Below are positions 1-5,921 of a stretch of DNA of 5,921 nucleotides, in pieces. Both the position numbers and the translations under genes were made by a program. The stretch is taken from the NCBI RefSeq assembly GCF_003334815.1, contig NZ_QOWO01000069.1. One strand, given 5' to 3'. Every line of letters starts with the position of its first letter. The first letter of the stretch is position 1. The notes under the pieces were generated by a model, which ran no database searches, was not told the origin of the DNA, and saw only the letters and a list, made by a program, of their open reading frames with translations. Origin of the DNA: Escherichia coli. GTDB lineage: Bacteria; Pseudomonadota; Gammaproteobacteria; Enterobacterales; Enterobacteriaceae.

Positions 1-315
1 GACCCGCCGCAACGACGAAGAGCGCGTGCGCGAAACGGCGTTGCCCCTCACATCCCGGCGGCCTTTTGCCGGGATGCAGGGAGCGCAGGCCACGGCGCGA
101 CAGAGGCGGCGCGACCGGAACGGTCGCTGCAAGCCAGGGGTTTCGCGTCAGGGATGGAAGCCCGTCAGGGCGGAGACAGCTTCGCTGGCTCCGTTCACGA
201 CAGCCCGCCCCGTCAGGGGGACGCCCGGAAAAGGCATAAGCAGGAGAACAACAAAACAGACAGTAATCAGGACAGCAGTAATCAGAGTCAGAACAGGAGG
301 AAAAAGAGAATAATC
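1..315. repeat. Copy A of a ~290-bp direct repeat; candidate Frpo/ssi-type single-stranded-DNA promoter element (begins at the window edge, so may be truncated)
   Basis: Positions 51..270 are identical base for base to 5682..5901 (220 bp); 1..50 matches 5631..5681 with a few substitutions and one indel. Internal dyad symmetry: 51-59/68-76 (9-bp stem), 111-117/121-127 (7-bp stem), 29-36/140-147, and imperfect long-range pairing 37-51/212-225. Purine-rich 3' tail. Functional call is inference from position in an IncF leading region. Confidence 0.6.
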
Positions 316-900: not shown

Positions 901-940
901 GGGCACATCATAGCCCATATACCTGCACACTGACCACACT
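901..940 (-). promoter_or_regulatory. Candidate hok/mok promoter; -10 TATGAT at 907-912 on the minus strand, transcript 5' end near 900
   Basis: Minus-strand sequence from 900 downward (GGCGCTTGAGGCTTTCTGCCTCATGACGTGAAGGTGG...) matches the 5' end of the R1 hok mRNA as I recall it. TATGAT lies 6 nt upstream of that 5' end. The -35 is not clear. Confidence 0.45.
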
Positions 941-1146
941 CACTTTCCCTGAAAATAATCAGGTCGTTCAGCCAGTTCCCGGGCAATCAGTTCATCCGCA
1001 AACAGTGGTGCATGCCTGTTGATACGTTTCTCCAGATTCCGCCGTCGTACCGCAGCCTTACGTTCTTCGCTCCAGCGGCGCACCGGGCGGTCAGAAATAA
1101 AATCCAGACAGACCGCATACCCTGCTCCGGCAACCCAGCGTGACAT
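940..1146 (-). CDS. Hypothetical small protein (68 aa from ATG at 1146; the track ORF extends to a GTG at 1287 and would overlap the psiA 3' end)
   Basis: Open frame between psiA and the hok promoter. C-terminal part is charged and helix-like (RRWSEERKAAVRRRNLEKRINRH...). No convincing Shine-Dalgarno before ATG 1146. Start and reality both uncertain. Confidence 0.3.
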   Translation of the reverse strand: MSRWVAGAGYAVCLDFISDRPVRRWSEERKAAVRRRNLEKRINRHAPLFADELIARELAERPDYFQGK

Positions 1147-1250
1147 AACGGATGCCGGAGCAGGCTGCCCCGCCTCCACCACTTCTGAAACCAGTTCATG
1201 CTCGCCAGGACAGGGATAAGGCAGTTTCCAGCGCAGTGAGTAACGCCACT

Positions 1251-1970
1251 TCACGCCGCCTCCCGGAGTTTGTTCGGCACCATCCACCGCTCCATCTCAC
1301 GGACGGCATGACCGGCCTCCCTTGCCGCCATACCAGCCTCTGCGGTGACCTGCCAGAATGGCATATCCTGCCACTGCCAGCGTTCCATCCCGGCCAGTGA
1401 CGGAAAACGCTCGCCCCACTGCCAGAACAGGGTTTCCAGGTCATGCTCTGCCACCCGGTCACTCCAGCGTGCATGCCAGCTTCCGACTGTTTCCGGTGAA
1501 TGGAACGCCAGTTCGATTTCTGCCTGAGCAACCAGCGCCTGGTACGCACGGGTTTTCTGCTCTGCCTCCCTCGCCTGCTGACGGCTGTACTTCTGCATGA
1601 CCAGTGCGGATTTATGGCGACTGCGTTCCCTGACACGGAACCGCACTGACGGGAACAACTGCTCTGCTGCATCGCAGGGAAGAGGAAGAAGGCAGACCTC
1701 GCCCTGAGTTTCAATCAGCACATCGACGGCATACAGCCACTGAGAACGGTTGCCGCGCAGTTCTTCTGCGGTCAGGGACGGCATGAAAAATCGCAGGTCA
1801 GACAGCGAAATCCTGCGGCTTCCGTTCAGACAGCGGAAAAACGCCCCCGCATACGGATATTCCGCCAGCGTGTTCCCCTGATGGCGGCGTTTTTCCGTCT
1901 CCGCCACCGCCTGCCATGCGGCCTGTTGCTCTGTGCTGAGGGGAACCAGTGCCTGTGAACGTGCGCTCAT
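1251..1970 (-). CDS. psiA: Plasmid SOS inhibition protein PsiA, 239 aa
   Basis: 239-aa ORF immediately downstream of and translationally coupled to psiB (ATGA overlap at 1967-1970); length and sequence match PsiA of F-like plasmids as recalled. RBS GGAAGGAGG about 6 nt upstream. Confidence 0.9.
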
Positions 1971-2455: not shown

Positions 2456-4423
2456 TCAGGCGGCATCGGCCTGGTTGTCACGGTATTCCGTGGTTTCCGT
2501 CTCTGCCTGTGGACGTGGTGTACACATCCAGCCAGGCACCCAGCGGTTGTCTTTCATGTGGAGCTCTGCATGTTCAGCCGCATCGCCTTTCTTCATTTTC
2601 TCCGCGTCCCGCGCAGCACCGGACAGTCCTGCATCATTCAGGGCATCGATAATCTGCGGCTTTTTCAGATGTCCGAAGAAGTTTGCTTTTGTCGGCTGCC
2701 ACCAGTCACGCATGTGGAACCCGATAGCGGTTTCCAGCGAGTCAAGCGGACTGCGTGACGTGTGACCATGCTCGCGAGTCTGGACACCATCCACGGAACA
2801 GGCTGTACAGAAAACCATCAGACTCATCAGAGTCTGTCCGTTAAGCGTGAAGAATGTGGTGAAATCTTTCTGCCAGCCCTCCGGCAACAGAGCCTCCAGA
2901 CGGGCTTTTTCCTGCATCAGACTCAGCCACGCCTGACCTCTCTTTCCACCGGGAGCATCACTTGTCAGCCTTCTGTGATTCTCTTCAATCTGTATCCTGA
3001 ACGGGTGGAGAGTGGTATTGCAGTAATCAAAAACACAACAGCACAATCGCCAGACCATCAGTGCCACTGTTTTTTCAGGTTGATGTATCAGCGCCGCCTG
3101 GACTGCCAGCGTGCGCTCTGAGGACATTTTCGTCAGCAACGGCAGGCTGATTTCCTCCACTGACGCTTTCTCCTGCACCTGTTCCGTGCGGTCAGCGTCG
3201 TCAGCCACGTCATCCTCACTGCGCAACTGCACACCACGCTGGACACACACGTTGCCATAACGCCAGGACACCACCACTCCACCTCCGGCACGCATCTCCG
3301 GCGTCCACGCTCTGACCTTCGCCATGCAGCGCATCAGCTTCATTTCTGCTTCCAGCAGGTCAGATTCCTCACACTGGTTTTCCAGCGCGTCGTAACGCGT
3401 CATCAGTTCGTTCAGGCGTTCTTCTTCCGCCTCCGTCAGCACCGCTTCCGGCTCCGGCAGACAGCGGTATGTTCCGGCATCCTCACGGCACTCACCGACA
3501 GGCTCCATGCGCCCGGCGCACCATTCCCAGCCTTCGGCTTCCCGAAGGTGTTCAGCAACAGCCTGGAGTTTTTCCAGCAGGGCGGCATTGAGCGCCACGC
3601 AGTCCACATAGCCACCTTCGTCGTCGCTGAACAAATCGGTGCGCAGTTCATCTGGCGAGAAGGCATCAGCCCCCACAAAGCGGAATTTACTGTTCCCCGC
3701 CACCGCCACTTCACTTTCGGTCACCAGACGACGAATGGTCTGTACTTCCGGTTTACCGCCCCATCCCGACTGACAGGCGGCTTCAAACACCTGCACCTGA
3801 CGCGCGGTGTCATTCTCCAGCGCCAGCGCCTGACAGTGTTCGGTGGTGATGCGGTCTTCTGCCAGCGCATCGAGGATGACAGGCGCAAGGTCAGCCAGTT
3901 TCAGCATTCGCTGGACATGGCGGGGTGAATAACCCAGCAAGTCACCGATTTGTGCAGGTGTTTTGCCTTCCTGCGCCATTGCGCGGAATCCGGCAATCTG
4001 TTCGGCAGGATGCATATCCCGACGATGACCGTTTTCAGTCATTGATGCGGCAGTCGCCAGCTCCTGCGGAATGACCTTCACACGGACAGGCCAGTCAGCC
4101 GGAAGGATGCCACGCTCTGCCAGCATGTTGAGTGCAGCCAGTCGGCGACCACCTGCGGCGACACCGTAACGCTCACCCGACAGGGCATGAACAACCAGAT
4201 TCTGCAACAGGCCGACGCCCTTAATGGACTCCGCCAGTTCGCTGACGGACTCTGCGGAATACGGCACAGTGCGCACATTCAGCGGTGATTTAATCAGTGA
4301 GGCCAGCGACACGCTCACTTCTTCCGTCTGCGCCAGCAGGGCAGACAGTGCAGTCTCCTGCACTTTTGACGGTTTACGGCTGGATTTACGCCCCGCTTTT
4401 ACCTTAAACTCTGTAACTGACAT
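2456..4423 (-). CDS. ParB/Srx-domain protein of the plasmid leading region (ParB-like nuclease/DNA-binding domain at N-terminus, long uncharacterised C-terminal region), 655 aa
   Basis: 655-aa ORF with ATG at 4423 and RBS AAGGGA. N-terminus carries ParB box motifs (SPLNVR around residues 46-51; GGRRLAAL at residues 91-98, resembling the GERRxRA arginine patch) and a helix-turn-helix-like segment (TPAQIGDLLGYSPRHVQRML). The C-terminal ~400 aa have no motif I recognise. A large ParB-like gene next to ssb is a hallmark of IncF/IncI leading regions. Confidence 0.85.
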   Translation of the reverse strand: MSVTEFKVKAGRKSSRKPSKVQETALSALLAQTEEVSVSLASLIKSPLNVRTVPYSAESVSELAESIKGVGLLQNLVVHALSGERYGVAAGGRRLAALNMLAERGILPADWPVRVKVIPQELATAASMTENGHRRDMHPAEQIAGFRAMAQEGKTPAQIGDLLGYSPRHVQRMLKLADLAPVILDALAEDRITTEHCQALALENDTARQVQVFEAACQSGWGGKPEVQTIRRLVTESEVAVAGNSKFRFVGADAFSPDELRTDLFSDDEGGYVDCVALNAALLEKLQAVAEHLREAEGWEWCAGRMEPVGECREDAGTYRCLPEPEAVLTEAEEERLNELMTRYDALENQCEESDLLEAEMKLMRCMAKVRAWTPEMRAGGGVVVSWRYGNVCVQRGVQLRSEDDVADDADRTEQVQEKASVEEISLPLLTKMSSERTLAVQAALIHQPEKTVALMVWRLCCCVFDYCNTTLHPFRIQIEENHRRLTSDAPGGKRGQAWLSLMQEKARLEALLPEGWQKDFTTFFTLNGQTLMSLMVFCTACSVDGVQTREHGHTSRSPLDSLETAIGFHMRDWWQPTKANFFGHLKKPQIIDALNDAGLSGAARDAEKMKKGDAAEHAELHMKDNRWVPGWMCTPRPQAETETTEYRDNQADAA

Positions 4424-4483: not shown

Positions 4484-4756
<273 letters not shown>

Positions 4757-4774: not shown

Positions 4775-5302
4775 TCAGAACGGAATGTCGTCATCGAAGT
4801 TATACGCGGGTTCAGACGGCTGCTGAGGCTCGGGCTGCGCGGCCTTACGTCCACGGCCTTTCGTTTTCGCGCCTCCTTTTTTCGGTTCCGGCTGTGGTTC
4901 CTGCTGAGGCTGACCGCTGAACTGTTGTGCCTCTTCCGGCTGAGTCTGAGCACCTGCGGCACGTCCCAGCATCTGCATGGTGCCCGTGGTCTTAACAAGA
5001 ATTTCAGTGACGTAACGGGTGATACCGTTATCTTCCCAGCTACGGGTACGGAGTTGCCCCTCGATGTAGACCTGCTCGCCCTTGTGCAGATATTCACCGG
5101 CCACTTCCGCGAGCTTGCCGAACAGCACCACGCGATGCCATTCTGTCTGCTCCCGTATCTCCCCCGTCTGTTTGTCACGCCAGCTTTCTGACGTGGCCAC
5201 CTGCAGGTTTGCCACTGCGCCCCCGTTTGGGATGTAACGGACTTCCGGATCTTTTCCCAGACGACCGACAAGAATGACCTTGTTAATGCCACGAACTGCC
5301 AT
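4775..5302 (-). CDS. ssb: Plasmid-encoded single-stranded DNA-binding protein, 175 aa
   Basis: Translation from ATG at 5302 ([48 protein letters not shown]...[19 protein letters not shown]...) has the SSB OB-fold core, a Gln/Pro-rich linker and the acidic C-terminal tail DDDIPF. Strong RBS AAGGAG 7 nt upstream. The track ORF begins 13 codons upstream (5341), but the RBS-supported ATG is at 5302. Confidence 0.92.
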
Positions 5303-5485
5303 GATGTATCTCCTTCTGTTGATGTTTTCAGCCCCCATCATCTTTTGAGTTTCGGGAGCCGCGGTTTTGACGTTTTGCGGGGACCTGCCTTTTGTTCCCT
5401 ACGGTATTCACCATCACCTTTTTGAGAACCTTCGCCGCAAGGGGCATCACTGCCACGGCCTGACGCACCTGTCCTGGGCAGAACG

Positions 5486-5521
5486 CAAAATTTTTTACCG
5501 GGTTCTGGGTAAAAAATTTTG
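5486..5521. repeat. Perfect 14-bp AT-rich inverted repeat (CAAAATTTTTTACC / GGTAAAAAATTTTG) with 8-nt spacer; candidate operator or structured regulatory site upstream of ssb
   Basis: Arms 5486-5499 and 5508-5521 are exact reverse complements; an extra C-G pair at 5484/5523. No flanking T-run on either strand, so unlikely to be an intrinsic terminator. Confidence 0.6.
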
Positions 5522-5630
5522 TGGGCTGTTCATTTACCCTGGACAGTCAGTGCGGCAGGTTGTGGCTGTATCAGCCCCCGGCGACAGGGGCTTAAACAGG
5601 TGAATGGCACCGGACACAACAACGGGCAGG

Positions 5631-5921
5631 GACCCGCCGCAACGACGTGAAGCGCGGTTTGCGAAACGGCGTTGCGCCTTACATCCCGGCGGCCTTTTGC
5701 CGGGATGCAGGGAGCGCAGGCCACGGCGCGACAGAGGCGGCGCGACCGGAACGGTCGCTGCAAGCCAGGGGTTTCGCGTCAGGGATGGAAGCCCGTCAGG
5801 GCGGAGACAGCTTCGCTGGCTCCGTTCACGACAGCCCGCCCCGTCAGGGGGACGCCCGGAAAAGGCATAAGCAGGAGAACAACAAAACAGACAGTAATCA
5901 GAGCAGCAGAAAAAAGAAGAA
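5631..5921. repeat. Copy B of the ~290-bp direct repeat; candidate Frpo/ssi-type single-stranded-DNA promoter upstream of the ssb operon (runs to the window end, so may be truncated)
   Basis: 5682..5901 is identical to 51..270; flanks diverge. Begins about 330 nt upstream (minus-strand sense) of the ssb start codon. Same internal hairpins as copy A. Confidence 0.6.

Follow-up and report, generated by a model that had tools for sequence, protein, structure and literature searches.

Two segments of 221 nt, one near each end of a stretch of plasmid DNA from Escherichia coli, are identical to the last base, and the question that this raises is whether the identity was written recently from one copy to the other or is held in place by constraint on every base. 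The window analysed here, the whole stretch of 5,921 nt from contig NZ_QOWO01000069.1 (assembly GCF_003334815.1), carries the two copies at positions 50-270 and 5681-5901. This is the longest exact match between the window ends, and a repeat finder calls the same pair as 257 nt with 97% identity. The original prediction had placed a 220-bp identical core at 51-270, which is confirmed with one base added. It had attributed the identity to recent gene conversion or recombination between the copies, or to strong constraint on a structured core. The reading favoured here, to which a probability of about three in four is assigned, is that the window spans two units of the Frpo type, one module of which (hereafter module B) has been homogenised, and that this module, once folded, would act in cis.

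The two sides of the identical core behave differently. On the left, positions 1-49 and 5631-5680 show 8 differences in 50 aligned columns, indels included, against 0 in the 221 columns of the core (Fisher p = 8e-7), and the run of identity is longer than the divergence of this flank predicts. Both flanks had been said to diverge, which stands for the left one only: beyond position 270 both copies enter low-complexity CAGTAATCAG/CAGCAG-type sequence and are no longer alignable, and the right flank is the boundary of the repeat unit, not divergence of homologous sequence. In copy 1, alignments place this boundary at 271-300 (+ strand), and its length varies among plasmids. The unit tails, both here and right of 5901 as well as in all the other loci, consist of short repeats of the CAGTAG / CAGTAATCAGAG type, in a run of variable length and with a copy number that depends on the plasmid and on the position. 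Along the + strand, a complete unit is laid out as segment A (350 nt), module B (221 nt) and the low-complexity tail. Window position 1 corresponds to position 301 of segment A in complete units of related plasmids; copy 1 is thus cut by the window edge inside segment A, and the true repeat unit is about 640 nt long.

The window is the leading region of an IncF-type (F-like) conjugative plasmid, and every real gene in it lies on the - strand. From left to right, these are a hok-family toxin gene (571-732; open reading frame and annotation of related plasmids), psiA (1251-1970) and psiB (1967-2404), both assigned from open reading frames and the annotation of orthologous loci, and three genes assigned from open reading frames and annotation: one for a ParB/Srx-like leading-region protein of 655 aa, homologous to yfjB (2456-4423), an open reading frame containing the DUF905 gene, homologous to yfjA (4484-4744), and the plasmid ssb (4775-5302). 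The sok antitoxin RNA region falls at 730-901 (Rfam RF01794, 98.2 bits). An open reading frame of 115 aa at 940-1287 (- strand) overlaps the 3' end of psiA and is annotated in relatives as a hypothetical protein (WP_000872086, 315 nt). Since traM and oriT lie to the left in oriented relatives, the + strand is the transferred strand and the template for the genes of the window. The repeat occurs in more than 5000 records of PLSDB, as a rule in 2-4 copies each, and the best matches to the whole window reach 95-97% identity. One related locus, L005, has a core identical to that of the window and differs in the rest.

The repeats are parts of two non-coding Frpo units of about 640 nt, each upstream of a leading-region operon. 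The ssiD/Frpo sequence of F (D90178, listed in Samuel et al. 2024, Supplement 4) aligns to 5331-5681, its last base being the first base of the identical core. As judged from this alignment and from BLAST, segment A of the second copy (5331-5681, + strand) is a homologue of the class-1 single-stranded-DNA (ssDNA) promoter of F and would drive ssb and the genes after it; its identity to F is 94.9% for the ssb-side copy and 90.1% for the ygeA-side copy. The apex of its hairpin, recovered as an inverted repeat at 5479-5528, is outside the core, and the functional Frpo2 construct of Samuel et al. 2024 maps to the left of the core. Of the first copy, the window retains the end of segment A (1-49, + strand), which in alignments carries a c3-type allele (GACGAAGAGCGC-GTGCGCG). 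Sequence comparison thus assigns the identical core to module B and places it outside the published promoter; the original prediction had recognised neither this nor the nature of the repeats as Frpo/ssi units. In agreement with this, homology to ssiD within the 221-nt core is confined to its first base, and that to ssi1-3 of ColIb-P9 to approximately its first 55 nt. A long imperfect hairpin of the promoter type was not found in the core, which features several short hairpins and a four-way junction instead, nor was a sigma-70-like -35/-10 pair.

Leading regions of this family contain from two to four units, each upstream of an operon: unit c0 precedes the ygeA-like and DUF932 genes, c1 adjoins hok, c2 precedes ssb, and c3 is further upstream. 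In the window, copy 1 of module B (50-270, + strand) adjoins hok and lies upstream of the operon to the left of the window, and copy 2 (5681-5901, + strand) lies upstream of Frpo2 and ssb. Both copies, as well as all units in 17 related loci, share one geometry: they sit on the transferred strand, which serves as template, and precede a leading-region operon. The closest known counterparts are Frpo1 and Frpo2 (ssiD) of F and ssi1-3 of ColIb-P9, which are class-1 ssDNA promoters (Masai & Arai 1997; Bates et al. 1999). The F copies, named Frpo1 and Frpo2 by Couturier et al. 2023 (PMC9849209), are both required for zygotic induction, lie about 5 kb apart with flm/hok between them, and are described as recombination substrates. 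As in F, the units here precede ssb and the oriT-proximal operon on the transferred strand, include a segment homologous to ssiD (5331-5681), and are repeated at a distance of about 5.6 kb. However, the core described here is not the promoter hairpin but lies 3' of it on the transferred strand, and the two copies of F differ at 26 of 221 positions, whereas those of the window differ at none. In copy 1 of L003 (pHN32_1), at 7955/7956, positions 92-255 of the ssiD segment, which comprise the whole promoter hairpin, are missing, and module B is kept.

The comparison across relatives covered 17 leading regions, in which 46 units were aligned and 34 full copies of module B were recovered. The 34 copies represent 26 alleles, with 74 of the 221 columns variable, and among the 5000 best PLSDB records 57 reach at least 99% identity to the window core. 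Per-site diversity is 0.066 in module B, in comparison to 0.076 in the adjoining segment A and 0.055-0.088 at the third codon positions of ssb, psiB, psiA and the parB-like gene; as module B matches both, divergence is uniform across the unit. This is the outcome which the original prediction had itself named as speaking against special conservation of the core, and its appeal to strong constraint as the cause of the identity is abandoned. Even so, the core has a structure, and a portion of its sequence is conserved between phyla.

Exchange between copies, in turn, is supported by the variation of alleles among plasmids, by their similarity within plasmids and by the composition of copy 1. In the 11 plasmids where c1 and c2 could be paired, their modules B differ at 26 (F), 17, 13, 11, 10, 3, 3, 3, 0, 0 and 0 positions, the zero-difference set being formed by the window and the loci L012 and L017. 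In these two loci, c1 and c2 are identical over the entire 570 nt of A and B, and a long identity is not unique to the window. Pairs within a plasmid differ on average less than pairs between plasmids (7.8 vs 13.2 differences; permutation p = 0.00017 for 11 plasmids, a value which is optimistic because the sample is related, was picked by similarity to the window and includes the near-duplicates L012 and L017). Moreover, copy 1 has a mosaic make-up: roughly the first 50 nt on its left are nearest to c3 alleles (2 differences, as against 8 to its own copy 2), and its core is that of c2. Two linked haplotypes of module B are scattered across unit positions and plasmids. Given that module B varies like segment A, that copies within a plasmid are more alike and that copy 1 is mosaic, the 221-nt identity is, with high confidence, one recent gene-conversion tract between paralogous units. 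One copy would recently have been overwritten from the other, by gene conversion or by unequal recombination between paralogous units, in a tract ending on the left at position 50 and on the right where the homology of the units ends. The direction and date of the event are not readable from a single plasmid, and the result would look alike if a double crossover had brought in the allele from a different plasmid that has it, such as L005 with its identical core.

Two other explanations of the identity have to be set against conversion. Purifying selection on every base of the core would hold the copies identical, and the structured nature of the core, with an 85-nt motif (described below) whose junction bases are invariant across phyla, could be taken in its favour. 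Such selection is nonetheless highly improbable in view of the 26 alleles in 34 copies and the 74 variable columns, of the 26 differences between the F copies, of the 57 records in 5000 with at least 99% identity, and of a diversity on a par with synonymous-like sites and with the flanking segment. Even less credible is that the core encodes a small protein, so that the identity would be that of a duplicated gene: open reading frames do cross the repeat on both strands, and a few records annotate a hypothetical protein or YubN there, but those of the two copies differ at their ends, 1-nt indels are common among copies (e.g. L002_c2, L006_c0, L012 and L013_c2), and conservation tracks helices with compensatory changes rather than codons. 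With no frame kept among the copies and conservation shaped by helices, the YubN/hypothetical-ORF reading was rejected.

Recent conversion places these units beside the concerted evolution of dispersed repeats such as rRNA operons, tuf genes and insertion sequence copies, in which paralogues within a replicon are more alike than orthologues between replicons, mosaic tracts have sharp ends, and the same repeats mediate deletions. The units here differ in being non-coding regulatory modules on a plasmid, and in that third and fourth copies, and probably copies on other plasmids, take part in the exchange as well. Exchanges between units are common in this plasmid family and also cause the loss or gain of the gene blocks between them.

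The suggestion that the repeats are substrates for deletion of the ssb-psi-hok block is borne out by natural variants with a single unit. A synthetic c1xc2 junction, which joins the DUF932, ygeA-like gene and unit side of c1 to the tail and methyltransferase side of c2, has a match in at least 37 candidate PLSDB records; in each, a single place accounts for 80% or more of the query length, and in many the match is one BLAST piece. In the one candidate inspected, pETEC_74 (NC_009790.1), the order is traM, DUF932, ygeA-like gene, one unit, methyltransferase and DUF3560, and ssb, the DUF905 gene, the parB-like gene, psiB, psiA and hok are absent. Plasmids with one or two units to the left of hok differ likewise by the c0-c1 cassette. 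The existence of both kinds of variant argues that the units mediate the loss and gain of the blocks between them, an idea which for F is already published (Couturier et al. 2023, PMC9849209). In two further loci, L001 (at about 1473) and L011 (at about 9001), the hok-proximal unit is missing and homology to the window begins at window position 308; in L011, an IS66-family element ends just before that point.

The homogenised module has a folded structure of its own. Folded as ssDNA, the + strand of positions 1-300 is more stable than its shuffles (z = -3.1), the value for the - strand being z = -1.6. Module B is predicted to be a chain of short G+C-rich hairpins which ends in an 85-nt four-helix junction. 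The first hairpin, H1 (CATCCCGGC / GCCGGGATG), lies on the + strand at 51-76, with its second copy at 5682-5707, and is found both in the DNA fold and in the consensus fold; divergent versions with other stems occur in L014, L015 and L021. Hairpin H3 (GCGACCG GAA CGGTCGC; + strand, 111-127 and 5742-5758) emerges from the consensus fold and from compensatory pairs, namely GC/CG/AU at alignment columns 87-100, AU/UA at 88-99 and CG/UA at 81-108. Both hairpins are kept through compensatory changes in the divergent homologues on plasmids of Klebsiella michiganensis and Enterobacter cloacae, where, for example, GACCG/CGGTC becomes CTCCG/CGGAG or CATCC/GGATG. The two haplotypes of module B also differ at H3, as the beta haplotype has an inverted loop, with TTC in place of GAA, together with a double change from C:G to T:A. 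The inversion (GGAAC vs GTTCC) separates the window (116-122 and 5747-5753) from L012, L016, L003_c1 and the c0 copies of L006-8, and together with the linked changes nearby it looks like a template switch or a flip within the palindrome. Intrinsic terminators, i.e. G+C-rich hairpins followed by a T/U run, were absent from 50-270 and 5681-5901 on either strand.

The four-helix junction occupies 142-226 in copy 1 and 5773-5857 in copy 2 (85 nt, + strand), each matched by the covariance model R1 with 92.6 bits in cmsearch (E ~1e-22 for copy 1). Its architecture comprises a closing helix P1 (GCGTC/GACGC) and three hairpins of variable length, P2, P3 and P4, connected by the invariant junction strands GGGATGGAAG and GTTCACGACAGCC. 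Candidates were collected by scanning the 17-mer CTCYGTTCACGACAGCC against one genome per species, a search for which about 70 chance matches are expected; a match was used only if the covariance model confirmed it. As a MAFFT alignment of 34 diverse motifs misaligned P4 and the 3' strand of P1, the model was built from a trimmed alignment of 12 diverse sequences. It identified 65 instances in the scanned contigs and 43 in plasmid loci, two of the latter being those of the window. Across 61 distinct sequences, 95.7% of cells are paired, as against 81.9% after shuffling, a pairing which is inflated by the fitting of the alignment to R1; sliding the pairing partners by 1-3 columns lowers it to 41-49%, which argues for a real signal. 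In the same set, 13 of 20 pairs change on both sides, with 155 compensatory cells against 42 in shuffled alignments. P1 is found as GCGTC/GACGC, GCGAT/ATCGC, GCGAC/GTCGC, CCGCA/TGCGG, GCGCA/TGCGC, GCGCG/CGCGC and GCGTT/AACGC. In the transferred-strand orientation, 25 G.T pairs are observed vs 12 A.C pairs, an excess which gives weak support to folding on the transferred strand; the same helices are possible in RNA of either sense.

The motif is found in many genera of Enterobacterales and in Pseudomonas, in Alphaproteobacteria, including Bradyrhizobium, Devosia, Methylocapsa, Enhydrobacter, Stappia, Palleronia, Mangrovicoccus and Rhodovulum, and in Negativicutes, including Selenomonas and Veillonellaceae. 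All 43 plasmid-locus matches run antisense to the genes that follow. The motif is followed first by ardC in Bradyrhizobium, Stappia and Palleronia, by a DUF4942 gene in Enhydrobacter, by a helicase gene in Selenomonas, and, as the second open reading frame, by a relaxase-like one on a Veillonellaceae contig. The ardC and DUF4942 assignments come from Pfam, which resolved these four of the open reading frames beside distant copies; NCBIfam was mostly uninformative. A statistic on gene orientation near distant motifs, derived from the lengths of open reading frames, was dropped as too noisy in high-G+C genomes. The motif also occurs on plasmids of Klebsiella and Enterobacter after a hairpin that is distinct from Frpo1 and precedes antirestriction genes, and hence accompanies more than one promoter class. 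The contigs of Streptomyces morookaense (L026 and L027) and of gut metagenome-assembled genomes (L035, L042 and L059) carry IncF-type units nearly identical to those of E. coli plasmids, and here contamination or mis-binning is probably at work rather than true hosts.

Comparison with known RNA families returned sok as the only match in the window (Rfam 15, E<=1) and nothing credible in 5300-5921 (E<=10); the motif had no Rfam match in five divergent loci, and none at the gathering threshold in four plasmid loci. No covariance-model match supported STAXI or the radC motif as the identity of the motif, and both were rejected. Sequence strings of the motif retrieved only unrelated primers from the searchable literature, and the recent papers on leading regions that were consulted, including Couturier et al. 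2023 and bioRxiv 10.64898/2026.01.09.698686, make no mention of it. A distinct upstream module with a cross-phylum junction motif absent from Rfam may therefore be new, as far as the searchable literature goes.

What the folded module would do can be sketched from its position. On the incoming single strand, module B may fold and, placed 3' of the promoter hairpin, work in cis as a barrier or insulator; there it would meet complementary-strand synthesis and read-through transcription arriving from the upstream operon, and the promoter hairpin would thereby stay single-stranded, and active, for longer. A conserved factor of the host or of the plasmid would recognise the invariant unpaired bases, and it is this invariance that suggests a protein partner, which module B probably has. 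The barrier reading, favoured because module B sits where synthesis and read-through arrive and because ssp2 of F stalls synthesis, is tentative and stands clearly below even odds. The ssp2 hairpin, a class-2 ssDNA promoter, stalls complementary-strand synthesis and prolongs zygotic induction in F (bioRxiv 10.64898/2026.01.09.698686) and, as a stable structure on the incoming strand of a leading region, serves as a model for the proposed role in cis. It differs in being the promoter hairpin itself, with a sequence unrelated to module B, and the roadblock is measured for ssp2 and conjectured for module B. In the same work, the stall was located at ssp2 and not at a B module; as a covariance-model search found no R1 motif adjoining ssp2 in F, this location is uninformative rather than contrary. 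Module B is dispensable for priming and transcription of ssiD in vitro and for the Frpo2 construct of Samuel et al. 2024. On the wider scale, the 85-nt motif is possibly, with more doubt than confidence, a structured element of conjugative elements across phyla which folds as ssDNA on the transferred strand, beside ssDNA promoters and upstream of genes for establishment and anti-defence (ssb, ardC, methyltransferase-like genes and a relaxase gene), and which is recognised by a conserved factor timing the copying or transcription of the strand. A likeness can be drawn with the ssDNA promoters of the pLS20 family (Val-Calvo et al. 2018, PMC6294495), which are likewise conserved and non-coding, precede establishment genes, ardC among them, and function on the transferred strand; by their description they are promoters, whereas the motif is a four-helix junction beside promoters.

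Two further functions have been weighed against a barrier. Module B, or the 85-nt motif, could be a priming or loading site (for the primosome, primase or RNA polymerase) at which complementary-strand synthesis starts in the recipient, since the non-coding elements of the F leading region were first isolated as single-strand initiation sequences (ssi), the incoming strand is converted discontinuously, with repeated priming (bioRxiv 10.64898/2026.01.09.698686), and unpaired bases invariant across phyla fit recognition by a universal host factor. A primer laid down at module B would, however, extend through the adjacent promoter hairpin and switch the promoter off, which fits poorly with the constant position of module B just 3' of the promoter; furthermore, the ssiD fragment that scores in priming assays stops at the first base of module B, in which no -35/-10-like pair was found, and a priming site is accordingly judged unlikely. 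Equally doubtful is that the motif acts as RNA, at the 3' end of the upstream operon transcript or within an antisense RNA of the + strand, in stability, processing or termination. All of its helices can form in RNA, copy 1 is downstream of the hok transcript region, and an antisense RNA family, AS-pc01 (RF02875), maps near another unit in L010; yet module B has no terminator-like site on either strand, the wobble bias disfavours a sense RNA, no Rfam family matches, and the motif is absent from the zygotic transcript of the operon which it precedes, because it lies upstream of the start of the ssDNA promoter. The match to AS-pc01, an antisense RNA of plasmid pHK01, scores 105 bits at 17728-17829 (+ strand) of L010; it adjoins the c3 unit on its left, on the side of the transferred strand.

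That Frpo units are repeated in F-like leading regions, that they are similar and that they may recombine was already known. To this, the window adds a clean case of gene conversion, together with natural one-unit deletion variants which back the published idea of recombination. The homogenised segment is a separate folded module and not the promoter. It is found beside ssDNA promoters belonging to more than one class, and the junction motif within it has an unchanged position and orientation in Enterobacterales, Alphaproteobacteria and Negativicutes. Should the module act on the transferred strand, it would represent a second kind of cis-acting ssDNA signal in plasmid establishment, and it could be used to mark leading regions and anti-defence genes in unannotated elements.

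Module B is itself modular, given that in c3 and in some c0 and c2 copies another G+C-rich module (TCACGCATCGGACCGTAGCG...GCCGGGAGCCGAAG) replaces the junction motif after the first 94 nt of the core. With approximate ends, this alternative module is present at 10116-10300 in L001, 19682-19900 in L003 and 8265-8400 in L009, and three times in L010 (7787-7950, 15098-15260 and 18400-18560). In two loci a group II intron (ltrA) follows shortly after the alternative module, at approximately 8265-10664 in L009 and 22862-25261 in L012, a placement that would suit introns of a class targeting stem-loops.
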